From: a virus
Length of the DNA stretch: 64,000 nucleotides
Virus record (IMG/VR): IMGVR_UViG_3300020045_007008
Location: 17,450 to 81,449 of that record
Direction: 5' to 3' (one strand)
Of the stretch, positions 18,733 through 40,743 are shown piece by piece. The position numbers and the translations under genes were made by a program. Every line of letters begins with the position of its first letter. Position 1 is the first letter of the stretch. The notes beneath the pieces were generated by a model that worked only from the letters and a program-made list of their open reading frames with translations, was not told where the DNA came from and did no database searches.

Positions 18733-19671
18733 ATGAAAACATTACGAACAGTAATCAAAGAGAAAATTTTTGAGATTGGAGAAGAAAGAACAAGAGTAAA
18801 AAAATCATTTTGGTGTACAGAATCAGAGACAAATCAACTTGAATTATTTTTTAAATTCAAAGGGATTAAGCCAACCAATCCAATGAAACCAGAAACAAAA
18901 TTTGGATTGAATATTAGAAAAAAAGTTGAAGATGTTATTCTAAGTTATCTTGAAGATATAATAATCAAACCAAAGCGATATGAAGATGAAGATGGAACAA
19001 TTATTGAAAATCCTGAGCAACATAGAGTAAAAATGGAAAGATTAGGAGTTCCAATCACTGGATATATGGATGCAGTTATAAAAGAAAGAGTAGAAGTAGA
19101 ATCTGGGGCTGATGGAGTTAATGGGCAATGGATTGAATTACCAGTAGAAATAAAAACAAGTTACGGTCCATTTGCTGAAGCAGAATTAAAAAGATGTGAA
19201 CCTAAATTAGGATATCTAAAACAACTTGGCCAATATATGGATTTCATGGGAGTTAATAAGGGATATTTATTTCAATTACATTTTAGTAATAATGGATTTA
19301 TCCCAGATGATTTTTATCAATTTGCTTTAATAAGAAATGGAAATAAATTTAAATGTGGCAATATCGAATTTGATATTTATGAAGATATATATAAACGATA
19401 TGAAAGAATATGGAATAATTATATTGTACCAAATATCGAACCACCATCAGAATATAAATATAAATATAAATTAGATGAAATAGATTGGAGAAGAATACCA
19501 AAATCAAAAGTAACTAATGCAAGAAATAATAGAGCAGTAATTGGTGATTGGCAAATTCAATATTCAGATTGGAAAGATTTAATTATACAAAAAGAAGGAA
19601 CACAGTTAGGGTATACAGACCAAGAATTAAATTATATTAAAGATTGTACAAAAGGATTTACATCGTGGTAA
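18733..19671 (+). CDS. PD-(D/E)XK (Cas4/RecB-like) exonuclease
   Basis: ITGYMD...VEIKT...QL..Y motifs. Confidence 0.75.
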   Translation: MKTLRTVIKEKIFEIGEERTRVKKSFWCTESETNQLELFFKFKGIKPTNPMKPETKFGLNIRKKVEDVILSYLEDIIIKPKRYEDEDGTIIENPEQHRVKMERLGVPITGYMDAVIKERVEVESGADGVNGQWIELPVEIKTSYGPFAEAELKRCEPKLGYLKQLGQYMDFMGVNKGYLFQLHFSNNGFIPDDFYQFALIRNGNKFKCGNIEFDIYEDIYKRYERIWNNYIVPNIEPPSEYKYKYKLDEIDWRRIPKSKVTNARNNRAVIGDWQIQYSDWKDLIIQKEGTQLGYTDQELNYIKDCTKGFTSW

Positions 19672-20205: not shown

Positions 20206-21447
20206 ATGAAGATAGTTCGTTTTAGAGCAATTAATTACAAGGGAATTAAACAAATAGAAATTATTCCAGAAGGAAATTTAGTGATAGTATCTGGAAAAAA
20301 TGGAGCTGGAAAATCATCAACATTAGATGGAATAAAAAACATTTTAGCAGGCAAAGACAAAATAACAAAACACCCAATTAGAAATGGTGAAGATAGAGCA
20401 GAGTTAGAATTAGATATTGAAGGACAATCTAGTAATGGTATAAAAGTAAACTATAAAATAAAAAAAGTTTTTACTGAAAATGGAGAACAATTACAAATAA
20501 TTAATAATGATGGATTGAAATATCCTAGCCCTCAAAGTTTTCTGAATAAACTAACTGGTAGTAAAAGTTTTGACCCAAATGAGTTTCTAAATAAATCAGA
20601 AAAAGAACAAAGAGAAGAATTAATTAAATTTTCAGGAATTGATTTAGCTAAAGAAGATAGAGACTTACAAGATATTTATGACCAAAGACATCAAGTTGGA
20701 ATAGAAGGAAAAGCATTAGCACAATATAATGATACTCAAATACAAGAAGCAAAAGAATATGAAAATATTGAAGAAATTAATATTAGTGATTTAACAAATA
20801 AATTAGAAGTAGAACAAAATAAACATCGAGAATATAATAGTGCTCAAAATGAATTATTATCAAATGATGAAAAAATAAAAAATTTAGAAAATCAAATTCA
20901 ATTAATAAAAGTTAGAAATGAATTATTAAAAGATATTAAAAAACCAGAAAGCAATATTGAAGAAATAAAAATAGAACTCAATACTGCAGATGATAAGAAT
21001 AAAAAAATAAGACAATCAAAACAAATTTTAGAGAATAATGAAAAGGTTATTTCAAAGAAAAAGGAATGGATTGGATTAGATTTACAATATAAAGAAAAAC
21101 AAAATGAACGTCAGCAATTATTATCTGCTATGGAATTACCATTAGACGGATTAGTAGTTACAGAGGATGAAATATTATTTAATAATGTTCCGATTAAACA
21201 ATTATCAACAAGTGAAGCAATGAAAATAGCAATTGCAATGTATATTGAAACTTGTGTCAGAGATGGAATAGAATTAAAACTAGTTACTATAAAAAATGGA
21301 AATGATTTTGACGATGATAGTATAAAAATAATTGCAGAAATAGTTGATGGATATGAAGATTTAACTATGTTTATTGAAAGAGTAGTTAATAGTGAAAATG
21401 AAGCAGTTGGAATATATATCGAAGAGGGTGTTATAATTAAAAAATAA
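20206..21447 (+). CDS. SMC/SbcC-like coiled-coil ATPase
   Basis: Walker A GKNGAGKSS, long coiled coil and LSTSE signature-like motif. Confidence 0.8.
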   Translation: MKIVRFRAINYKGIKQIEIIPEGNLVIVSGKNGAGKSSTLDGIKNILAGKDKITKHPIRNGEDRAELELDIEGQSSNGIKVNYKIKKVFTENGEQLQIINNDGLKYPSPQSFLNKLTGSKSFDPNEFLNKSEKEQREELIKFSGIDLAKEDRDLQDIYDQRHQVGIEGKALAQYNDTQIQEAKEYENIEEINISDLTNKLEVEQNKHREYNSAQNELLSNDEKIKNLENQIQLIKVRNELLKDIKKPESNIEEIKIELNTADDKNKKIRQSKQILENNEKVISKKKEWIGLDLQYKEKQNERQQLLSAMELPLDGLVVTEDEILFNNVPIKQLSTSEAMKIAIAMYIETCVRDGIELKLVTIKNGNDFDDDSIKIIAEIVDGYEDLTMFIERVVNSENEAVGIYIEEGVIIKK

Positions 21448-21457
21448 AACAATAATT

Positions 21458-22522
21458 ATGAAATTTAAAAAACAAGATTTAAAAAATATATTATCGATAG
21501 TTTGTCCTATTGCTAATAAAAATAATCTATTGCCGATATTGAGTAATATTTTTATCAAAGCAGAACAAGATAATATAAAATTTATTTCTAGCGATGGTGA
21601 AAATATAGTTGAATATACACAAGATGGCCAATATGAAACTGGTGAATATATAATTAATTCAAAGACATTTCAAGATTATATTAATCTAATAACAAGTGAT
21701 GATGTCGAATTAAATTTTAGTGAAAAATGTTCTATAAATAGTAAGACACATAAGACAACTATTAATTTACAGAATAATGAAAAATATCCAAATTTATTAG
21801 AAAAGACAAATGGATTTGAATATGAAATTGATAGAAAAGAATTAATGAATAGTATTTCACAAGTATTATTTGCATCATCAACTAGTGATATAAAAATAGA
21901 ATTATCTGGTGTAAATTTTAATTTCAAAGATATATTAATTTTAGCATCAAGTGATGGAATGCGATTAGCAGAAAAGAAAATAAATATAAGCGGTGATGAA
22001 TTAAATATTATAGCACCATCTAAACTTTTGAATATATTATTAAATATATTATCAAAAATAAATGATGATAAAATAAAAATTATTGCAAATCAAAATAGTA
22101 TTTCATTTAAATCTAATAATGCATATATTTCATCGAGATTAATAAATGGTGTTTTTCCAAATTATTCTCCACTAATATCGAAAGAATTTAAAACAAATAT
22201 TATTGTTGATAAGAATGATTTAATAAATACTATACAAACTAATGCATTATTTTCTTTAGATGGGACTATTAAATTAGATATAAATGAAAAATTATATATA
22301 GATACAGAATCATCGATGGGTAAAAATAAAAGTGAAATTGATATAATAAAAACAGGAGAAAATAATAATATAAAATTTAATTATTTATATTTATTAGAAA
22401 TAGTAGAAAATATAAAAAGTAATAGAATAATAATAGAAATGAATGATAGTAAATCGCCTGCTATTATTAAATCAGATATAGATGATAGATTTTTTTGTGT
22501 ATTAATGCCAATGAATCAATAA
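21458..22522 (+). CDS. dnaN: DNA polymerase III beta sliding clamp
   Basis: PILSNI, SDG.RLA, SRLING.FPNY, FN..YL and VLMPM C-terminal motifs; 354 aa. Confidence 0.92.
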   Translation: MKFKKQDLKNILSIVCPIANKNNLLPILSNIFIKAEQDNIKFISSDGENIVEYTQDGQYETGEYIINSKTFQDYINLITSDDVELNFSEKCSINSKTHKTTINLQNNEKYPNLLEKTNGFEYEIDRKELMNSISQVLFASSTSDIKIELSGVNFNFKDILILASSDGMRLAEKKINISGDELNIIAPSKLLNILLNILSKINDDKIKIIANQNSISFKSNNAYISSRLINGVFPNYSPLISKEFKTNIIVDKNDLINTIQTNALFSLDGTIKLDINEKLYIDTESSMGKNKSEIDIIKTGENNNIKFNYLYLLEIVENIKSNRIIIEMNDSKSPAIIKSDIDDRFFCVLMPMNQ

Positions 22523-22525
22523 TTT

Positions 22526-24730
22526 ATGAAATATATAAATGGTTACACATATAAGGACAAAATAATTCTCGAATACAAAGAAGATAATATAAAAAAACAA
22601 AAAGAAATAATAGATTTTAAATGGTATTTTTATATTAGAAAAGTTGATTTATTGAAAATAGATTTAGATAAAATGAAGTCTTGTGGAATGATAGATGATT
22701 ATATTATTGGAAATGAATATGTCAGATTATATTCTCAAAATTTAAATAATAACTACGAACAAGATGCAAAGAAAGCAGTTTTAGAATATTTAAAAAAAGA
22801 AAATATAGAAACATTCGAATCTGATTTTGATAGTTTAAAAAGATATTGCATTGATAATAGAATAGAAGTAGATGATGATTATGATATATTATATTTTGAT
22901 ATTGAAACTGATGATACAAATATTGGAATAAATATTGGTGCATATCCTATGTTAACAATGGGAGCAATTGATAATAAAGGTAATAAATTTTATTTTAATG
23001 ATAAAAATGAGAAAATTCTTTTACATAATTGTTTAGAATTATTTAAAAGATATGATATTATTGCAGGATGGAATAGTTCTGGATTTGATTTACCATATAT
23101 CAAAGAAAGGATGAAAGAATATAGATTACATTTCAATTGGGGAAGTGTTGCACATATTGATATGATGAAACGATTCATATCTCTCTTTAATCTACCTAAA
23201 AATTCATTAAATTATGTTGCTGAATATTTTTTAAATGCAAGTAAATTAGACCATAGTGGAAAAAGAATTATAGATATATATAATAAAGAACCGGAATTAT
23301 TGAAAGAATATAATATGCAAGATGTACAATTATTGAAAGATTTAGATGAAAAGGTCGATTGTTTTAAATTAATGATAAAAGAAGCAAAGTGGTGTAATAC
23401 TTTTATGAGTAATTTCTATGTTTCAGAATTATTAGATAATTATATTTTAAAGAATGCGAAAGAAAAGAATATTATATGCCCATCAAAAAAACAACAAGCA
23501 GATAATTTTCAATATGCTGGAGCAATAGTATTAGAACCTGACCGAGGATTATATGATGATGTATATGTATTTGATTTTAGTAGTCTATATCCTAGTATTA
23601 TAATGACATCAAATATTGGTTTTGATACATTGGATAAAAATGGACATATAAAGAACCCAGGCTCAGGATTTAGATTTTCAAATAAAAAGAAATCAATCAT
23701 AAAAGAAACTATTGAAGGAATGATAGGAAAAAGAAAAGAATATAAAGATAAAAAATTAAAGATGATTGAAGAAGGAAAAAATAAAGGACCAGAATTTGAA
23801 ACTATAGTTAGTAATGAATATGTTGTTAAAGCTCTTACTAATTCTATCTATGGTATAATGGGAATGCAAACAAGTAGATGGTATTCAGTTGAAATAGCAG
23901 AATCAATCACAAAAATGGGGCAATGGATAATTACATTTACATTAAATTATTTTAATTCAATTGGCTTTAAAGTAATCTATGGTGATACAGATTCACTATT
24001 TATCTGTGATAATGAAAATAAAGATATTAAAAATAAAATGGAAGATATTTTAAAAGAATATCATAGAGTTTTAGAAGATGAACTTAAACAATATGGAATT
24101 TTAGAATCACATATTCATTTAGAAGACGACAAAACATTTAGTAGATTTTTATTAGTTGATAAAAAAAATTATACTGGTATTGCTTCAAGCATAAACGGTA
24201 AAAAAACAAATGAACTATATACCAAAGGACTTGATTATATAAAAAGAAATACAATTAAATATGCAAGTAATAAACAAGAAAAATTAATTAAACATATTTT
24301 ATTTGATAATTATAATATTGATGATTGTATTTGGTTTATCGAAGAATGCCAAAGAGAAGTGATAGATGGTAAATTAGATATTGAAGATTTAATCATCAGA
24401 ATGAAAATAACAAAACAACCAAAGGAATATGCGTCAAAATTACCACACGTTATTATTGCCGAAAGAATTATAGAAAAGACTGGATATTTACAAAATTATG
24501 AAATTGAATATATTGTAAAAAATAGTGATATAAAAGAATATATAATGGTAGAAGAATATCAAGGCAAATATGATGAATATTTCTATTGGAATAATAGAAT
24601 TTATAATTTATTAAAAAGAATATGTAATGTTGCATTTCCTGATGAAGATTGGGAAAGATTTTATATGCAAAAAATAAGAGAAAGAGCAGGTAGAAAGAAA
24701 GAACAAAATCAATTATTTTTACAATTTTAA
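22526..24730 (+). CDS. polB: Family B DNA polymerase
   Basis: Exo DIET and GWNS.GFD; DFSSLYPSI; K...NSIYG; YGDTDS; KKNY; C-terminal QNQLF. Confidence 0.95.
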   Translation: MKYINGYTYKDKIILEYKEDNIKKQKEIIDFKWYFYIRKVDLLKIDLDKMKSCGMIDDYIIGNEYVRLYSQNLNNNYEQDAKKAVLEYLKKENIETFESDFDSLKRYCIDNRIEVDDDYDILYFDIETDDTNIGINIGAYPMLTMGAIDNKGNKFYFNDKNEKILLHNCLELFKRYDIIAGWNSSGFDLPYIKERMKEYRLHFNWGSVAHIDMMKRFISLFNLPKNSLNYVAEYFLNASKLDHSGKRIIDIYNKEPELLKEYNMQDVQLLKDLDEKVDCFKLMIKEAKWCNTFMSNFYVSELLDNYILKNAKEKNIICPSKKQQADNFQYAGAIVLEPDRGLYDDVYVFDFSSLYPSIIMTSNIGFDTLDKNGHIKNPGSGFRFSNKKKSIIKETIEGMIGKRKEYKDKKLKMIEEGKNKGPEFETIVSNEYVVKALTNSIYGIMGMQTSRWYSVEIAESITKMGQWIITFTLNYFNSIGFKVIYGDTDSLFICDNENKDIKNKMEDILKEYHRVLEDELKQYGILESHIHLEDDKTFSRFLLVDKKNYTGIASSINGKKTNELYTKGLDYIKRNTIKYASNKQEKLIKHILFDNYNIDDCIWFIEECQREVIDGKLDIEDLIIRMKITKQPKEYASKLPHVIIAERIIEKTGYLQNYEIEYIVKNSDIKEYIMVEEYQGKYDEYFYWNNRIYNLLKRICNVAFPDEDWERFYMQKIRERAGRKKEQNQLFLQF

Positions 24731-33225: not shown

Positions 33226-33794
33226 CATTTAATAAAAATATATTATAAATGCGTAAATTAACTAAAAAACAAAGAGAAAAATTAGCATATTCTCATCAAG
33301 TATTTTATAATGAAACTGGGACACATATCACAATAGAAATTGATAATGCAATAAGAAAAATATTAGGATATGAAATCCCATCTAATAGTGTAAGAATGTG
33401 GAAAATAAAATTATGAAAGAAAATACATATCAAGAATATAACAATTATAAAATATATCTCAATAATTGGGAAGAGTATTGTGTATGTGATTTACATGGAA
33501 ATTTAATAGAATGGAATTCGAGTTTCAGGACACTTAAAGAAGCAAAAGATTATATTGATAAAATATTAAATTAATATTATGTTTGATAAAAAAGAAAAAC
33601 ACTTATTAATAGCACTAGTTGAAGCACAAAAATCAACAGTTAGTTTATTAAGAGGATTTCGAAAACCAAATAGAGAAGAGCAAGATGAAAATGCTTATTA
33701 TAATAGAATAATTGAAAAATTAAATAAATTTTAATAATAAAGAAGAACCGAAACAATTAGCAGATAAAATTAATATTGAAGAGAAAAAATAGTT

Positions 33795-34142
33795 ATGGAT
33801 ATACAAAAATTTATAGAAAAAAGAAAAGAAGATGGACAGAATAGTTTTAGAGATAAATGTCTTGTCATTGGTGTAGATATGGATGGAGTATTATGTAGTG
33901 GAGAATTATGGGAAGGAGAAAATAGTGAACCAAAACCAATACAAGAAAATATAGATAAAATAAATGAATTAAGTAAAACTAATTTTATAGTAATTCATAC
34001 AGCAAGAAGAAAAGAATCGGCAACAAAAACAATAAATTGGCTCAATAAATATCAAGTGGTATATCATGCAATTAGATTTGATAAAATGCCAGCTGATTTA
34101 TATATAGATGATAAAGCATTTAACTTTGATATCTATGAATAA
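33795..34142 (+). CDS. Small HAD-superfamily phosphatase
   Basis: DMDGVL, HTAR, K..ADLYIDDKA. Confidence 0.8.
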   Translation: MDIQKFIEKRKEDGQNSFRDKCLVIGVDMDGVLCSGELWEGENSEPKPIQENIDKINELSKTNFIVIHTARRKESATKTINWLNKYQVVYHAIRFDKMPADLYIDDKAFNFDIYE

Positions 34143-34303
34143 AAATTTAGAAATAGTACAATCAAAATCAAAAGAAATTGGACATTGCGTTTGTTCAAAA
34201 TGTTTTACTTGCCCCTGTAATTATTTTACTCAATATAATTTATGTAAATGTGCAGGGGATAAAATAAATCAAGAAGAGTGGCTAAAATTTAATTTAAATA
34301 AAA

Positions 34304-34696
34304 ATGAATACATTTGAATTAGGTAAGAAAGGCGAACAAATTATTTATCAGTTATTTAAAAATAAAAAATATCAAATTCAATCACCAGACTTTTTTGTAT
34401 ACAGCAAAGAAATAGATAAATATATATGTATTGAAGTTAAATTTAAAAATAATCAATTTAAATCTCAATATTTTAATGGTTATGGAATAAATAAAAATCA
34501 AATATATTTAAGAAATAAACTATTTGAAAAAACAAATATAAGAACATTCATAATAATAGTTGATAATACGATAAAAAATATTTATGGTCAATATTTAGAT
34601 ATATTACAGAAAGGAAAATTTATAAATACAAAAGATACTACAATATATGATTTAAATAGCTATTTATTAATAAAAAAAGGTATTGACTTTTTTTAA
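34304..34696 (+). CDS. PD-(D/E)XK nuclease-like protein
   Basis: G..GE...PDF...IEVK motif. Confidence 0.6.
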   Translation: MNTFELGKKGEQIIYQLFKNKKYQIQSPDFFVYSKEIDKYICIEVKFKNNQFKSQYFNGYGINKNQIYLRNKLFEKTNIRTFIIIVDNTIKNIYGQYLDILQKGKFINTKDTTIYDLNSYLLIKKGIDFF

Positions 34697-34711
34697 ATAA
34701 TACTATATAAT
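34683..34711 (+). promoter_or_regulatory. sigma70-type promoter of the 7-deazaguanine operon
   Basis: TTGACT-17 nt-TATAAT, 26 nt before queD. Confidence 0.8.
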
Positions 34712-34737
34712 AATATTATAATTAAAAGAATAAAAAT

Positions 34738-35145
34738 ATGCACATATTGAGATTAAAACACCATTTCGATGCGGCTCATCGATTAGAATTTCATAGTGGA
34801 TTATGCTCGAACCTCCATGGCCACCGCTGGGATGTAGAAGTATTAATACGAAAAAATGAATTAGATAAAAATAAATTAGTAGTTGATTTCGGAGATATTA
34901 AAAAAATAATTAATGAGTTCGACCATAAGACTATTTTAAAAAATTGTGAAGAAAATCAAAAATTAATAGATGTTATTTTCGAGATGGGATGTGCTTATAT
35001 TTTATTAGGTGATTCACCTACTGCAGAAAATATTGCACAAGTATTAACAAATAGAATTAATGAAGAATTACAAATATCAAATACAGAAGTTATTGTTTGG
35101 GAATCACCAGAAGCATCAATTGAATATTATAATAATGAAATATAA
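34738..35145 (+). CDS. queD: 6-carboxytetrahydropterin synthase
   Basis: FDAAHRL...C.NLHGH.W; DF..IK; DH..L; PTAENIA; WES. Confidence 0.93.
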   Translation: MHILRLKHHFDAAHRLEFHSGLCSNLHGHRWDVEVLIRKNELDKNKLVVDFGDIKKIINEFDHKTILKNCEENQKLIDVIFEMGCAYILLGDSPTAENIAQVLTNRINEELQISNTEVIVWESPEASIEYYNNEI

Positions 35146-35149
35146 AAAT

Positions 35150-35800
35150 ATGATAAAAGTAAATATCAATGAAGCATTTCATTCTATTCAAGGAGAAGGT
35201 GCAACAATAGGGCATCCAATATTGTTTATTAGATTAGCAGGATGTAATTTACATTGTTTGTTCTGTGATACTCAATACCATACTAATATTAATTATAATG
35301 AGATAAATGATGAGTTAGATAAATTATTAAGAAAACATAAATCATGGTGCATTACTGGTGGTGAGCCATTATTACAGCAAGATAAAATCCTAGAACTTAT
35401 TAGAGAATATGACCCAGAATGGGTAGAAATAGAAACTAATGGTACAATAAAACCATCTGATGAATTATTAGAAATTATTAGTCAATGGAATATAAGTCCT
35501 AAAAATCCAGAACAAAACGAAGTGAAAAATATTGAATATAAATTTTTAGATAGTTTAGCATATAATATTAATTATATAATTAAATTTGTATATACAGATA
35601 AACAAGATGAAAATTTTATTGAGACAATGATAGATAATTATTATATAGATGAAAATAGAGTATTTATAATGACAGAAGGTGCAACAAAAAAAGAGCAAGA
35701 GCACAATATGCCAAATGTAATAGAGTATTGTTTAAAAAATGAATTTAATTTTAGTCCCAGGCTACATGTGTTGCTCTGGAACAATAGACAAGGAGTATGA
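35150..35800 (+). CDS. queE: 7-carboxy-7-deazaguanine synthase (radical SAM)
   Basis: SIQGEG, RLAGCNLHCLFCDT, TGGEP, ETNG, SPK and RLH motifs. Confidence 0.93.
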   Translation: MIKVNINEAFHSIQGEGATIGHPILFIRLAGCNLHCLFCDTQYHTNINYNEINDELDKLLRKHKSWCITGGEPLLQQDKILELIREYDPEWVEIETNGTIKPSDELLEIISQWNISPKNPEQNEVKNIEYKFLDSLAYNINYIIKFVYTDKQDENFIETMIDNYYIDENRVFIMTEGATKKEQEHNMPNVIEYCLKNEFNFSPRLHVLLWNNRQGV

Positions 35801-36279
35801 TTGTAACATATAAACAAATAATAAAAGACTCAATTGAGTTAGCAAATCACATTAAAAACAATTATGTTAATAGAGCAAAAGAGTATAAAGCAATCCATGG
35901 TATCCCAGCTGGCGGAATAGCAACTGCAGTTGTAATGGCTCATGTATTGAATATTGATAATATTCTAAGTGCTGAAGATTATAAAAATTATGAAAATAAA
36001 TCAGAAGTATTAGTAGTAGATGATTTAGTAGACAGTGGTGCAACATTAAAAAAGTTTTCAGAATCAGATTGTGCTGTAGTATATAAAAAACCACATTCAC
36101 CTCAACCAACATATTACTATAAAGATATTGAAAGTGGTTGGGTAGAATTTCCACACGAAAAGGACAAAGCAGGTATTCTTGACCATATTATAAGAGTATT
36201 CTCTTATATTGATGTTCAATTATCAGATGAGGAACAGCAATTAGTTATACAATTACTTAATAAAATAAAGAATAAATAA
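35797..36279 (+). CDS. Type I phosphoribosyltransferase (Gpt-like)
   Basis: GIP.GG, PRPP loop VVDDLVDSGAT, WVEFP.E. Confidence 0.85.
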   Translation: MIVTYKQIIKDSIELANHIKNNYVNRAKEYKAIHGIPAGGIATAVVMAHVLNIDNILSAEDYKNYENKSEVLVVDDLVDSGATLKKFSESDCAVVYKKPHSPQPTYYYKDIESGWVEFPHEKDKAGILDHIIRVFSYIDVQLSDEEQQLVIQLLNKIKNK

Positions 36280-36338
36280 TTAATATAGAGTTATAAAATT
36301 AGACTTATCTTTTTACTACTTTTCCTCTATTCAAAAAA

Positions 36339-37085
36339 ATGAAAAAAAAGATTGTTATTATTTCTGGAGGAATGGATTCAACTACACTGCTATATGATGT
36401 AGTGAATCAATTCTCATCAGAAAATGTGATTGCTTTAACATTTTTCTATGGTTCAAAACATAATGACCAAGAAATAAAGAGAGCAAAAATTAGTTGTCAA
36501 AAATTAAATGTTGAGCATAAATTATTTGATTTATCGTCAATATTTCAAAATTTTAACTCATCATTATTAAAAAAAGAAGACAGTGAAATAATACCAGAGG
36601 GGCATTATGCAGAAGACAATATGAAAAAAACGGTTGTCCCATATCGAAATGGTATATTATTATCTATTGCAATTGGATTTGCTGAAGATTTAGATTGTGA
36701 TTCAGTATATTATGGTGCTCACGCTGGTGACCATACTATTTATCCAGATTGTCGAGATGAGTTTGTGAAAGCATTTTCATTAGCATCAATATTAGGTACA
36801 TATAATAGAGTGAAAGTAATTGCAAGTTATGAAAATATTGATAAATATGGAATTCTACAGATAGGAAAAAAATTAAATATTAATTATATTGATACTTGGA
36901 CGTGTTATAATGGAGAAGAAGCACCTTGCGGAAAATGTGGAAGTTGTACAGAAAGAGCTGAAGCATTCTATAAAATGAATATGAAAGACCCATTATATAC
37001 AGATAAACAATGGCAAGATGTATTATTAAATCTTAAAAAATTAAACATAATTGATAATACCAATTATCAACCTGAATTATTATGA
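36339..37085 (+). CDS. queC: 7-cyano-7-deazaguanine synthase
   Basis: SGGMDS, VP.RN, H.GD..IYPDCR, TWTCY...CGKCGSC.ER. Confidence 0.95.
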   Translation: MKKKIVIISGGMDSTTLLYDVVNQFSSENVIALTFFYGSKHNDQEIKRAKISCQKLNVEHKLFDLSSIFQNFNSSLLKKEDSEIIPEGHYAEDNMKKTVVPYRNGILLSIAIGFAEDLDCDSVYYGAHAGDHTIYPDCRDEFVKAFSLASILGTYNRVKVIASYENIDKYGILQIGKKLNINYIDTWTCYNGEEAPCGKCGSCTERAEAFYKMNMKDPLYTDKQWQDVLLNLKKLNIIDNTNYQPELL

Positions 37086-37669
37086 GAAATAAAGAAAAAT
37101 TAGAACAAATTTCAAAATCTCTAATAGAAGAAATCGGAGAAAAATCAGACAGACAAGGATTAATTGGTACACCAGATAGAATGGCAAGAATGTTTTTAGA
37201 AGTTTTTAGAGGATATGATGAAACACAAAAACCCAAAATAACAACATTTAAAAATGGAACTGATGGAATAGTATATGACCAAATTATTACTGATACGGGT
37301 TCATATTATTCATATTGTGAACATCATATGGTACCATTCTTCGGTCAATATTGGTTTGCATATATTCCACACCCAGACGGAAAAATTTTAGGATTAAGTA
37401 AAGTTGCAAGAATCGTTGATTATTATTCGGCTAAAATGCAAATACAGGAAAGATTAGTTCAAGATATCGTGAATAATCTATGGAGTGCTTTAATAGATAG
37501 TAATAGAATTGAACCTATAGGAATGGCTTTGGTAATGAAAGGTGAACATTTATGTAAATCAATGCGTGGTGTGAAAAAAAGAGGAACAATGACGACATCT
37601 GATTTGAGGGGTTGTTTTAAAACTGAAGCTGATACAAGAAAAGAATTTTTTGACTTGATAAAATTATGA
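37082..37669 (+). CDS. folE: GTP cyclohydrolase I
   Basis: GL..TP.R, CEHH..PF.G, GLSK..R, QERL, H.C..MRG. Confidence 0.95.
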   Translation: MRNKEKLEQISKSLIEEIGEKSDRQGLIGTPDRMARMFLEVFRGYDETQKPKITTFKNGTDGIVYDQIITDTGSYYSYCEHHMVPFFGQYWFAYIPHPDGKILGLSKVARIVDYYSAKMQIQERLVQDIVNNLWSALIDSNRIEPIGMALVMKGEHLCKSMRGVKKRGTMTTSDLRGCFKTEADTRKEFFDLIKL

Positions 37670-38160
37670 AAGAAAAATTAGAGAAATTATTACAACAAAT
37701 AAAAGAAAGAAAAGGTGGTGCTGATTCATCAAAATCACATTTAAAGAGTGCATTATATGATTGGAGAATTGAAGATAACTGGTCTAGAAATAATTGCTTT
37801 GTAATAAGTGAAAATGATTTGGGATTTGCATTTTATACATTCACGATACGAGAGCCTAGACACTGCACATTAAGACATATATTCACATTAGAAGAAGCAA
37901 GAGGTCAAGGAATTGGAAAGAAACTAATGAATAGAATTGAAGAGCATATGAAGAGAGATAGAGTTGAGATAATGCGATTTTATGCAAATAAGCCAGCTAT
38001 TAAATTCTATGAAAAATTAGGATATACTTGGCTCGGTGAAAATAAACAAGGATTGCCATTCACATATTGTGATATATGTACAAAGAAGAATATTAATAAT
38101 CAACAACAATTGAAAAAAATATTCAAAATTTATAATCAAAATAATTTATTTAATATCTAA
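37666..38160 (+). CDS. GNAT-family N-acyltransferase
   Basis: Acetyl-CoA motif RGQGIGKKL and N.PAIKFYEKLGY; C-terminal QNNLF. Confidence 0.85.
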   Translation: MKEKLEKLLQQIKERKGGADSSKSHLKSALYDWRIEDNWSRNNCFVISENDLGFAFYTFTIREPRHCTLRHIFTLEEARGQGIGKKLMNRIEEHMKRDRVEIMRFYANKPAIKFYEKLGYTWLGENKQGLPFTYCDICTKKNINNQQQLKKIFKIYNQNNLFNI

Positions 38161-38165
38161 ATTTT

Positions 38166-38645
38166 ATGTCAGATACAAAAAGTTTAAAATCATTAGGTTC
38201 TAAATCAACAAAATATGAATGTAATGGTGTCAATCCAGAATTATTGGAAGTATTTGAAAATCAACACCAAAAAAATAATTATTTAATACCATTTATTCAA
38301 CCAAGAGATGAATTTACTTCATTATGTCCTAAGACTGGGCAACCCGACCACGCCGCTTTAGAAATTATATATATACCGAGAGAAGATTGTGTAGAATCAA
38401 AATCATTAAAGCTTTATTTAGTATCTTTTCGAAATAGCGGAGAATTTCACGAAGATGTCTGTAATAGAATAGCAGATGATTTAATTAGATTATTAAATCC
38501 TAAATATCTCAGAGTATATGGTGATTTTGCACCAAGAGGCAGTTTAGCAATAAAACCACTTATTGAACGATGGAATATAGAAGAAGGTATAGAAAAACAA
38601 GATATAAAATTTTTAATTAATTCTTGGGATTTAAAGAAAAAATAA
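38166..38645 (+). CDS. queF: NADPH-dependent preQ0 reductase (unimodular)
   Basis: EFTSLCPKTGQPD, intact QueF motif ESKSLKLYL, FHE and PRG. Confidence 0.92.
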   Translation: MSDTKSLKSLGSKSTKYECNGVNPELLEVFENQHQKNNYLIPFIQPRDEFTSLCPKTGQPDHAALEIIYIPREDCVESKSLKLYLVSFRNSGEFHEDVCNRIADDLIRLLNPKYLRVYGDFAPRGSLAIKPLIERWNIEEGIEKQDIKFLINSWDLKKK

Positions 38646-38646
38646 A

Positions 38647-39663
38647 ATGAATAGTTTAAAAGATTTTAATTTATTTTATGCAGTTAGTGGACGAATGTTC
38701 TTAGAATATCTTCTTATCTGTAATGTTAAAAATATTCTTATTTCTTTTGCTTATTTAGACCCGTGGTCAATGAGTAATATAATGAAGCACAATAATATAA
38801 ATTTAATTTGTGATTCTGGTGCATTTACTGCTTGGAATTTAAGTCAAAAATATAAAAAGAAGGGCGACCCGAATTGGCAAAAATATTTAGTTGATATTGA
38901 TGCATATGTTGAATTTCTGAATAAACATAAAGATATAATTTATAGAGCAGTAAATATTGATGTCATCCCAGGTGAACAAGGTATAGAACCAACAGAGGAG
39001 CAAATAATTGAAGCGGCAGAGCAAGGGTGGAAAAATTATCAATATTTAAAAAGCAAAGGATTTGATACAATTCACGTATTTCATCAAGGTGAGCCAGATT
39101 GGGTTCTAGATAGAATGTTGAAAGAATGTGATTATATTGGAATAAGTCCAAGTAATGACTATAGCACAAAGAGAAAAAGATTGTGGATGGATAGAATTTT
39201 TAAATATATTGCTGATTCTAATAACCCAAAAATAAAAACTCACGGATTTGCTGTAACAAGTGAAGAATTAATGAATAATTATCCTTGGTTTTCAGTTGAC
39301 TCAAGTAGCTGGTGTCTAAGTGCCGCGATGGGAAAAGTAAGAACAAAATATGGTGAGTTATATGTAAGTGATAGGGGAAAATATGGAGATGATAATATTT
39401 TTTCAAAAACAGGTGAAGTGAGAAAAGAATTAGATAAATACTTCATAGAAAAAATTGGATATAATATATCAGCATTAGCAGGTGAACCAGAAAAAATAAT
39501 TAAGAAATGTGAATGTGGAATCGAAAATGAAATCGAGATACCGTGCAGTCAATATAAGACAAGAACATTAGCGAATATATTATATAATTTAGAATTTGAA
39601 GAAAAGAGACGAGCAAGCGGACCGAATTTGAATTTTATGAATCAAAATAAATTATTTGAATAA
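38647..39663 (+). CDS. dpdA: DpdA-like DNA transglycosylase (TGT-fold)
   Basis: DSGAFTAW, D.IPG, HVFHQGE, YIGIS, HGF, SVDSSSW; last gene of the preQ operon; C-terminal QNKLF. Confidence 0.75.
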   Translation: MNSLKDFNLFYAVSGRMFLEYLLICNVKNILISFAYLDPWSMSNIMKHNNINLICDSGAFTAWNLSQKYKKKGDPNWQKYLVDIDAYVEFLNKHKDIIYRAVNIDVIPGEQGIEPTEEQIIEAAEQGWKNYQYLKSKGFDTIHVFHQGEPDWVLDRMLKECDYIGISPSNDYSTKRKRLWMDRIFKYIADSNNPKIKTHGFAVTSEELMNNYPWFSVDSSSWCLSAAMGKVRTKYGELYVSDRGKYGDDNIFSKTGEVRKELDKYFIEKIGYNISALAGEPEKIIKKCECGIENEIEIPCSQYKTRTLANILYNLEFEEKRRASGPNLNFMNQNKLFE

Positions 39664-39678
39664 ATTTATATAAAATAA

Positions 39679-39734
39679 TCACTAAGATTAAATAATATCT
39701 AAGTATTGACATTTTTTATATAATATTATATAAT
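39679..39734 (+). promoter_or_regulatory. TCACTAAGATTAAA + sigma70 promoter
   Basis: Motif at 39679; TTGACA 39706-17 nt-TATAAT. Confidence 0.8.
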
Positions 39735-39743
39735 TAAAATATA

Positions 39744-40048
39744 ATAATCAGAATAATTGTATTATTCTTCGTAATATAATTATCCCAGCGAAGTTAATTC
39801 TTCCAAAATCTGATTATATGGGGGATTTATTTATATTTAGCCTCATTATAAAGTCATAAGTGTAATGTGGAAATTAGGTTAGGTCTTAATATATTAATTT
39901 ATATTGAGACTAAATATAAATAAAATATTAAACCATTATAAGTTGTCCATTTTTTATCGGTTATAAGCCAGCTGCTTTAAATCGCAAACTAAATAGTTGG
40001 TGAATTGCGCATAACAATAACTGCCTTAGCTCTAACTAGTTGGCAGTT
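39744..40048 (+). ncRNA. Noncoding structured leader/RNA cluster
   Basis: ATAATCAGA/TCTGATTAT, TTTATTTATATTTAG/CTAAATATAAATAAA and AACTGCC/GGCAGTT stems; no convincing ORF. Confidence 0.45.
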
Positions 40049-40103
40049 CTAGTATATTGAAGAAATAAATATATGTCTACAACAAATTAAAATTTTTATT
40101 AAT

Positions 40104-40331
40104 ATGAGTAAAACAAAAGATTTATTAATAGAAGAATTAAATAAAGAAAAAGAATGCATATACTGTAAAGATTGTAAATATAAATATACAGGAAAAAAAC
40201 TAAATAAAAGATTTGAAAAAGTATATGGAGAATATTTCGATGATAGATGTAATCCATATTTTGATAATAAAGAGAATAATTGTAAATATTTTGAATCAAA
40301 TATAAATTGGTTCTGGGGATTATTTAAATAG
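40104..40331 (+). CDS. Small Cys-rich hypothetical protein
   Basis: CKDCKY...C...C pattern. Confidence 0.55.
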   Translation: MSKTKDLLIEELNKEKECIYCKDCKYKYTGKKLNKRFEKVYGEYFDDRCNPYFDNKENNCKYFESNINWFWGLFK

Positions 40332-40390
40332 AATATTAACATTGATAAATATATATGTTTTATACAAGAAAAAAATATAAAAAAAATTAA

Positions 40391-40743
40391 ATAGTATATA
40401 ATGTTCAGAGGTGACTGAATAATCTATTAGTGAGTAGATAAGGTATAGCGAAAATTCATAGGGAATTAGTAGCTAGTTTATGAGTATATGACTTAATCAT
40501 TACTAAAAGGTATCACTACCGAGAGGCTCCAAATAAACTTAATGAGCCAATTATGCGTTAAGATGTTGATGTGCTGACTCCTAGGTTCGGTACAAAGATT
40601 GTATAATTTAGAGCAACAAATCTTAATCTTAAGATTAGCTCCTTATTGATAGAGTAGGCTCTATTGATTTGCAAAAATAAAAGATGAATAAGGTCTCATA
40701 ATAGAGGAAAACCTACTCCTCTCCTCTGAACATTGTATATTAT
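40391..40743 (+). ncRNA. About 350 nt structured RNA with tRNA-like ends
   Basis: GTATATAATGTTCAGAGG pairs with CCTCTGAACATTGTATAT (G-U wobbles); AGAGG/CCTCT T-arm-like hairpin adjacent to the 3' strand; no ORF. Confidence 0.6.

Follow-up and report, generated by a model that had tools for sequence, protein, structure and literature searches.

We analyzed a 64,000-nt stretch of viral DNA (hereafter, the window), corresponding to bases 17450–81449 of the complete, 81,449-bp record IMGVR_UViG_3300020045_007008 of an uncultured virus from a metagenome, which has direct terminal repeats. Between the replication and packaging genes, the + strand carries a run of eight tightly packed genes (34738–39663) in the order queD, queE, a phosphoribosyltransferase (PRTase) gene, queC, folE, a GNAT gene, queF, and a dpdA-type gene. 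The subject of this study is the GNAT, an N-acyltransferase that the original prediction had proposed to acetylate the amine of preQ1, the 7-deazaguanine that the pathway would deliver to DNA. The window is AT-rich (approximately 22–34% G+C per 2-kb segment, mostly near 25%), and nearly all of its genes are on the + strand. Its replication module comprises a DnaD-like loader, a primase-helicase, a DnaN-type clamp, and a family B polymerase, and an RNA ligase, four tRNAs, and a large terminase are also encoded.

Profile searches placed every member of the predicted eight-gene set where it had been expected on the + strand and confirmed the family assignments (Table 1). The proposed translational coupling of the GNAT to folE and its position directly before queF were also borne out: an ATGA overlap joins the folE stop and the GNAT start, and the queF ATG begins 5 nt after the GNAT stop. 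The longest queE open reading frame (ORF) begins at 35060, but the ATG at 35150 (MIKVNINEAF...) is the likelier start; the QueE family scans were performed with the in-frame piece 35141–35800. The assumption of a single promoter is plausible insofar as the two best sigma-70-like sites in 33500–40500 flank the operon, one being the candidate upstream of queD (11/12 matches) and the other lying at 39706–39734 (12/12). However, the total number of such sites in this region (59) equals the shuffled expectation (59.1), showing no excess. A scan of the same region found no terminator-like site on the + strand. The second site, a perfect TTGACA-17-TATAAT, falls in a 440-nt stretch after dpdA (39664–40103) that is devoid of ORFs.

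Table 1. Positions in the window of the operon genes, the promoter candidate, the clamp and polymerase genes, and the clamp-binding-like tails.
Feature	Position	Strand	Evidence and remarks
Sigma-70-like promoter candidate TTGACT-17-TATAAT	34683..34711	+	11/12 matches; 27 nt upstream of queD
queD, 6-carboxytetrahydropterin synthase	34738..35145	+	PF01242 (PTPS) 3.3e-29; TIGR03367 2.4e-23
queE, radical-SAM 7-carboxy-7-deazaguanine synthase	35150..35800 (probable start)	+	TIGR04349 2.9e-28; PF04055 (Radical_SAM) 6.4e-9
Small xanthine/guanine-PRT-like phosphoribosyltransferase	35797..36279	+	NF006613 1.5e-10; phrog_8995
queC, 7-cyano-7-deazaguanine (preQ0) synthase	36339..37085	+	PF06508 5.1e-58; TIGR00364 182 bits (cut-off 150.3)
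folE, GTP cyclohydrolase I	37082..37669	+	PF01227 3.1e-50; NF006826 179 bits (cut-off 162)
GNAT N-acyltransferase, candidate dPreQ1 N-acetyltransferase	37666..38160	+	PF00583 58.5 bits (cut-off 20.7)
queF, unimodular NADPH-dependent preQ0 reductase (preQ1 synthase)	38166..38645	+	TIGR03139 146 bits (cut-off 86.9)
dpdA-type DNA guanine transglycosylase	38647..39663	+	phrog_887 2.3e-54 (3.8e-56 in genome search)
GNAT QNNLF tail, clamp-binding-like	38137..38151	+	Residues 158-162 of 164
DpdA QNKLF tail, clamp-binding-like	39643..39657	+	Residues 333-337 of 338
DnaN-type sliding clamp	21458..22522	+	PF00712, PF02767, and PF02768 all match; phrog_947 6.5e-55
Family B DNA polymerase	22526..24730	+	PF00136 2.3e-60; QNQLF at residues 727-731 of 734 (nt 24704-24718)

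The profile matches to FolE, QueD, QueE, and QueC make the preQ0 pathway of the operon complete. When QueF was aligned with its counterparts from Streptococcus phage Dp-1, Bacillus phage Flasso, and two metagenomic sources, SLCPKTGQPD and ESKSLKLYL showed no variation. We take the catalytic Cys and the E(S/L)K(S/A)hK motif to be the marks that distinguish a nitrile reductase from QueF-L. The motifs are thus retained as predicted, and the further claim that the enzyme is a reductase rather than QueF-L agrees with its sequence (TIGR03139, invariant motifs). The window DpdA has no Pfam match in a profile search, including to tRNA-guanine transglycosylase (TGT), whereas tblastn matched it to the annotated DpdA of Flasso, Dp-1, MS1, and CAjan (E 8e-35 to 5e-22), with identities of 33% to that of Flasso and 33.5% to that of Dp-1.

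Dp-1, whose QueF is 58% identical to that of the window, is the phage with the closest characterized QueF and DpdA. A megablast search of the operon against GenBank phages gave no match. The DNA of Dp-1 was measured to contain dPreQ1 at approximately 1.7% of G (Hutinet et al. 2019, PMC6884629). The Dp-1 cluster resembles that of the window in encoding FolE, QueD, QueE, QueC, a unimodular QueF with the catalytic Cys motif, and DpdA; in both phages, DpdA ends in QxxLF and a DnaN clamp is encoded. Dp-1 differs in lacking the GNAT and the PRTase, in having a QueT transporter instead, and in its gene order. The window system is predicted to be a dPreQ1 pathway of the Dp-1 type extended by tailoring, which would take this phage one step past the dPreQ1 of Dp-1.

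The GNAT matches not only PF00583 but also PF13508 (56 bits, cut-off 27). Its acetyl-CoA loop, read from the sequence, is R79-G-Q-G82-I-G84 (RGQGIG), and we assume the loop definition Q/R-x-x-G-x-G/A for binding of the acetyl-CoA pyrophosphate. A search of 5.8 billion proteins assembled a family of 57 proteins at E ≤ 1e-5, the other 56 of which are 47–60% identical to the window protein. An alignment of 31 members has 25 invariant columns, among them that of R79, while G80 and G84 are nearly invariant; also conserved are an N-terminal KGRxSSKSHLKxALYDW...W and, preceding the acetyl-CoA loop, EPRHCTLRH. Basic proteins predominate in the family: the isoelectric point (pI) exceeds 8.5 in 49 of the 57, and the median is 9.18 (9.55 for the window protein). 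The AF2 model of the GNAT (pLDDT 92.9) displays a GNAT fold with two long N-terminal helices, and its top Foldseek matches are all GNATs (probability 1.00, TM ~0.5). Across 185,579 prokaryote species, each represented by one genome, a pattern scan detected no relative, and tblastn against GenBank phages gave no match at 1e-5. Judging from these features, we place the GNAT in a discrete family, apart from generic acetyltransferases.

The genomic context of the family was compared among relatives collected from IMG/VR (18, plus 4 from another search) and from metagenomes. For the latter, the best 80 of 173 relatives were inspected, of which 36 loci were counted as family (L025–L059 and L071; best-segment identity of at least 44%), and the other 44 (L060–L104 except L071; 30–46% over part of the domain) were set aside as generic GNATs before counting. 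Neighbors were classed by tblastn with the window proteins and with reference proteins from the loci, and the GNATs were dereplicated at 90% identity into 24 clusters, including that of the window. Ten clusters are accompanied by Que genes, two by amino-acid:DNA transferase (aaDT), kinase, and Tet/JBP oxygenase (TET) genes, and nine by only an amidohydrolase-2-like neighbor, leaving three uninformative. In the Que-linked set, queF was seen in 8 of the 10 clusters, and the remaining two are incomplete contigs.

The ten Que-linked clusters, whose GNATs occupy three separate places on the GNAT tree, consist of the window, five SLT-type clusters, and four clusters (L031, L032, L047, and L050) from phages related to Flavobacterium phage immuto_2-6A. 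The order exonuclease-SLT-GNAT-QueF-QueC-QueD-QueE-FolE is common to five of them, and in the L009, L020, and L027 groups, where the contig extends far enough, a ParB_N+DUF6610 protein comes next (DUF6610 match 7.7e-38 at the locus and 4.1e-40 in the whole record). DUF6610 is the DpdA4 transglycosylase subfamily, which was called specific to archaeal viruses (Cui et al., PMC10516641). The phrog_887 model, which did find the window DpdA, found no DpdA in the records of five relatives, and the presence of the DUF6610 DpdA explains the missing match in the L009-type relatives. In L032, the transglycosylase is a DpdA3 that is 80.6% identical to the enzyme of immuto_2-6A. Accordingly, three DpdA types accompany the GNAT: the phrog_887 type in the window, DpdA4/DUF6610 in L009, L020, and L027, and DpdA3 in L032. 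At 1e-5, the window shares nothing with the Que-linked loci beyond the GNAT, Que proteins, and the PRTase; over all loci, one further ORF is shared (20206–21447, with L058). Given the separate places on the tree and the absence of other shared proteins, the association appears to have arisen, or to have been kept, independently with three DpdA types.

Two features of the SLT-type loci deserve mention in their own right. The fusion of ParB_N to DUF6610 (L009 15112–16287; homologs in L020 and L027) is found on 34–39-kb viral contigs with an SLT lysozyme-like gene. In L009, and identically in L010, approximately 1.1 kb without an ORF of at least 70 aa (L009 8468–9570) separates the GNAT from queF, whereas L011 and L020 have just 130–360 nt there; the gap may represent inserted DNA, an RNA, or the remains of a gene.

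The small PRTase also recurs in phage preQ1 clusters. Besides the window, it is found in L108 (4932–5327), L032 (3798–4199), and L047 (470–805), the last two of which carry homologs of the window PRTase. Like the window, the fdPreQ1 cluster of immuto_2-6A holds a PRTase, with 35% identity between the two proteins (E 6e-18). Its role would be the salvage of released guanine or the formation of a nucleotide. The word "phosphoribosyl" is absent from the main text of PMC10516641.

The two aaDT-linked clusters (24 loci) connect the family to thymidine hypermodification. They encode a ParB-like protein, aaDT (PF18724 7.9e-22), the GNAT, a 260-aa protein, P-loop kinase 3 (8.9e-18), and a Tet/JBP oxygenase (8.5e-28). 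This layout resembles that of the PaMx11 cluster, in which aaDT (gp46), FAD lyase (gp47), acetyltransferase (gp48), and kinase (gp49) follow one another. In PaMx11, gp47 unmasks 5-aminomethyl-deoxyuridine (5-aminomethyl-dU) in oligonucleotides, and gp48, a GNAT, adds 42 Da to 5-aminomethyl-dU oligonucleotides with acetyl-CoA (Lee et al., PMC8989533). Like the window GNAT, gp48 is small and its gene lies within a phage operon for DNA hypermodification, and the demonstrated substrate of the enzyme is a primary aminomethyl group on a DNA base in the major groove, as the preQ1 amine would be. Unlike the window family, gp48 lacks the conserved N-terminal helices and motif; it acts on a pyrimidine, the amine of which comes from aaDT and FAD lyase and not from QueF. 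The alignment of the 260-aa protein with gp47 is confined to a PSWF motif and an N-terminal dinucleotide-binding (FAD-type) stretch (pairwise E 0.002, hhalign probability 23%). The order aaDT, GNAT, 260-aa FAD-motif protein, P-loop kinase 3, Tet/JBP was observed in L005 (5052–8692) and in the loci of 11 sister clusters, which suggests that this type of cluster makes a PaMx11-like acetylaminomethyl pyrimidine via an on-DNA oxygenase rather than via pre-replicative 5-hydroxymethyl-deoxyuridine.

A different association of the family is with a 328-aa protein, present in 13 of the 24 clusters: alone in nine and with Que genes in four, namely, the immuto-like clusters. Its gene lies on either side of the GNAT gene, and in L030 the two are fused into a 538-aa ORF (261–1877). 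The model of this protein (pLDDT 87.7) is an amidohydrolase-2 barrel like those of LigI lactonase, IDCase, and ACMSD decarboxylases, and no Pfam, PHROG, or phage tblastn match was found. We considered the protein as a DpdA candidate and rejected it, since the barrel is of the amidohydrolase-2 type, not TGT, and has no similarity to the window DpdA. An N-terminal D-x-H-x-N is invariant in the family, examples of which are the L030 fusion and the proteins of L012 (7031–8017) and L032 (8458–9450).

The C-termini of three window proteins suggest where the GNAT acts. QN.LF occurs three times in the 101 + strand ORFs of the window, always within the last ten residues, and the proteins concerned are the family B polymerase (PolB), the GNAT, and DpdA (Table 1). 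The looser pattern Q..[LIM]F has 7 matches in the 114 + strand ORFs of the genome, 3 of which, again those of PolB, the GNAT, and DpdA, are in the last 15 residues (binomial P 0.005). Similar ends are found in DpdA proteins of other phages (Dp-1 QRRLF, MS1 QNRLF, Flasso QGKLF, R7M QELF, and CAjan MELF), and in all five of these GenBank phages dnaN is located within three genes of dpdA. The dpdA genes of these five phages are those of loci L002 (3793–4728), L001 (8158–9054), L110 (2839–3774), L109 (2971–3888), and L111 (1405–2325), and the window brings the number of phages with such a DpdA end to six. These comparisons suggest a general tethering of DpdA to the sliding clamp; we found no paper linking DpdA to sliding clamps. 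The other members of the GNAT family do not have QNxLF and end in conserved tails of their own, e.g., LPKSQxRY[IV]V or P.KRD..R[IL]. The tail of the window GNAT thus seems to be a lineage-specific match to the clamp of its own phage, and the other tails may be tethering peptides for their own partners. A predicted clamp-GNAT complex scored 0.07 against a mark of 0.34, which, being without controls, counts neither way. A further motif, QLELF, was seen at residues 35–39 of a 312-aa protein (18733–19671) that lies between the primase-helicase and an AAA ATPase and has no Pfam match; it may be an N-terminal clamp-binding motif. Given that QNxLF tails are common to PolB, the GNAT, and DpdA, we read them as an indication that the GNAT works on DNA together with DpdA behind the fork.

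From these data, we propose the following pathway. FolE, QueD, QueE, and QueC would produce preQ0, which QueF would reduce to preQ1 with a free aminomethyl group, and DpdA would swap guanine in the phage's own DNA for preQ1; these steps are deduced from the protein families and the precedent of Dp-1. The GNAT would then move an acetyl group, the acyl group being assumed to be acetyl, from acetyl-CoA onto the 7-aminomethyl nitrogen, giving 2'-deoxy-7-(acetylamino)methyl-7-deazaguanosine (N-acetyl-dPreQ1). This acetylation would occur on DNA just behind the fork, with the clamp as the proposed tether for PolB, DpdA, and the GNAT. Such a role would parallel formylation by DpdN and methylation by DpdM in other phages, and also the action of PaMx11 gp48 on 5-aminomethyl-dU. 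The likely benefit is that a bulkier, uncharged group in the major groove would escape host nucleases or glycosylases that recognize dPreQ1. The window genome has no match to ADDT, Tet_JBP, or Ploopntkinase3, i.e., to the context of a gp48-type enzyme, so the product of QueF is the sole amine-bearing base precursor seen. Likewise, neither an amidohydrolase-2-like gene nor a match to Formyl_trans_N/PF00551 (DpdN) or DUF3109 (DpdM) was found in this genome, and hence no known tailoring enzyme competes for the preQ1 amine. On balance, and largely by analogy, we lean toward N-acetylation of dPreQ1 by the GNAT, on DNA and behind the replication fork.

Several observations weigh against this assignment. 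Its support consists of gene context and analogy. The fold and the PDB profile matches of the GNAT are only generic, including polyamine, serotonin, and protein N-acetyltransferases and tRNA-acetylating toxins, and gp48 can be aligned with the window GNAT at 35% identity over 69 residues in the CoA-binding core only (tblastn E 0.04). The interpretation of QNxLF as clamp-binding presumes the consensus QL[SD]LF, and the binding itself is a prediction. In addition, 14 of the 24 family clusters were not seen with Que genes; the nine amidohydrolase-only clusters are mostly on contigs shorter than 9 kb. In L012 (record G005), which is CheckV-complete at 31.5 kb, no Que, DpdA (phrog_887, DUF6610), or aaDT/kinase/TET gene was found, and the record carries the GNAT, an amidohydrolase-like gene, and DNA methylases. 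Because this phage has no recognized amine-base pathway, the GNAT family must have, or be able to have, another substrate. Finally, L032 (5939–10703) encodes DpdA3 and DpdN followed by a kinase-GNAT-amidohydrolase-like insertion before queF, and its DpdN homolog, which is 51% identical to the predicted dPreQ1 formyltransferase, stands beside the GNAT. With DpdN also present, the GNAT of L032 would be an addition and not a simple capping enzyme of the free amine, and the product of this cluster may go beyond fdPreQ1. The proposed co-occurrence of the GNAT family with queF and preQ1 genes was thus largely borne out, in three otherwise unrelated lineages with three DpdA types, against 14 clusters not seen with Que genes; the claim of acetylation of the preQ1 amine is partly supported, in that it gains from the recurrence with preQ1 genes and in PaMx11-type clusters and loses from L012, L032, and the same 14 clusters.

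The complete phage G005 would be readily understood if the GNAT had nothing to do with the base and instead acetylated a host or phage protein (for takeover, or for regulation of the replisome or clamp), a polyamine, or a tRNA, its place in the operon reflecting linkage only. The three clusters without informative neighbors agree with this, as do the structural matches to protein and polyamine acetyltransferases and to tRNA-acetylating toxins such as AtaT. Furthermore, the phage GNAT Rac acetylates host RNA polymerase (PMC7824862), and the clamp-binding-like tail would equally suit a replisome regulator. Such a role would leave unexplained that the family resides inside two chemically different hypermodification modules, both of which yield a primary amine in the major groove, and that it accompanies three DpdA types in phages sharing no other genes with the window phage. 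Given also the translational coupling of the GNAT within the operon and the lack of a relative in the prokaryote genomes scanned, we consider a role apart from the base unlikely.

About equally unlikely, in our estimation, is acetylation before insertion, in which the GNAT would act on free preQ1 or on a preQ1 nucleotide produced by the PRTase, the acetylated base being inserted afterwards by DpdA or the polymerase. This order is conceivable because bacterial QueF-type enzymes reduce the free base and because whether reduction precedes or follows insertion in Dp-1 was left open (PMC6884629), both of which count against acetylation on DNA. DpdA enzymes tolerate different 7-substituents, as illustrated by the DpdA2 of Vibrio phage VH7D, which inserted preQ1, preQ0, and CDG in E. 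coli (PMC10516641). The PRTase in the operon and in the immuto_2-6A, L032, and L047 clusters would also fit, as would the nucleotide kinases that adjoin the GNAT in L032 (phrog_2107) or lie near it in L044 (PF21448). On the other hand, the QNNLF tail, of a type common to PolB and DpdA, points to work on DNA, as does the basic character of the family (median pI as given above), and the members in aaDT/kinase/TET clusters must act on DNA since in those pathways the amine is assembled on the polymer itself (PMC8989533). A third alternative retains the DNA-borne preQ1 amine as the substrate but assigns to the GNAT another acyl-CoA or aminoacyl donor, or a step in a longer route. It would account for the pairing or fusion of relatives with the amidohydrolase-2-like enzyme (13 of 24 clusters; the L030 fusion), whose predicted LigI/IDCase/ACMSD-like fold would be suited to further processing of an appended group, and for the retention of DpdN beside the GNAT-amidohydrolase pair in L032. 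In the window genome, however, the GNAT is alone, no amidohydrolase-2-like gene being found; its R-x-x-G-x-G loop and small size are those of ordinary acetyl-CoA-using GNATs, and the sole characterized DNA-amine GNAT uses acetyl-CoA (PMC8989533). We regard this alternative as the least probable of the three.

Acetylation of dPreQ1 on DNA, the reading we prefer, can be extended to the whole phage and family. The phage DNA would then carry 7-(acetylamino)methyl-7-deazaguanine made at the fork by clamp-riding DpdA and GNAT, and the family would be a general N-acetyltransferase of major-groove aminomethyl bases, both purine and pyrimidine. This wider proposal is tentative and, in our judgment, falls a little short of probable.

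Among phage DNA-modifying enzymes, the Mom protein of phage Mu forms a family of its own and acylates N6 of unmodified adenine, unlike the window GNAT with its standard acetyl-CoA loop. The two are alike in that Mom is a GNAT-fold enzyme that modifies a phage DNA base for restriction evasion (PMC7824862). DpdN and DpdM, described in 2023 (PMC10516641), are closer in role, being encoded with the FolE-to-QueF genes and DpdA and derivatizing the aminomethyl nitrogen of preQ1. However, DpdN is PurN-like (PF00551) and DpdM belongs to DUF3109, and the window GNAT differs from both in fold and in donor (acetyl-CoA). It would be a functional analogue of DpdN and DpdM, mechanistically closest to PaMx11 gp48, and a member of none of these groups. 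Eight 7-deazaguanine derivatives are known in viral DNA (PMC10516641). Neither "acetyl" nor "GNAT" appears in the main text of that article, whose supplementary list of flanking genes might mention acetyltransferases. We found no paper describing acetyl-preQ1 or an acetylated 7-deazaguanine in DNA, in keeping with the earlier statement that an N-acetyl-preQ1 deoxynucleoside was not known to have been described in phage DNA. The present analysis adds the family-level link between thymidine and deazaguanine modification, the association with three DpdA types, the clamp-binding-like tail, and the counter-examples.

If the proposed reaction is correct, the N-acetyl form would be the ninth viral 7-deazaguanine, and the GNAT would represent a new class of tailoring enzyme. 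Since modified guanines and thymidines are targets of host-encoded glycosylases (bioRxiv 10.1101/2025.10.29.685425), the capping of the amine may be a counter-move. The common clamp-binding-like tail suggests a means by which modification after replication keeps up with the fork, and small enzymes of this kind could serve to introduce acetylated or other acylated bases into DNA. If a single family indeed serves both thymidine and guanine hypermodification, phages would shuffle their tailoring enzymes according to the chemical handle, a primary aminomethyl group, and not according to the base.

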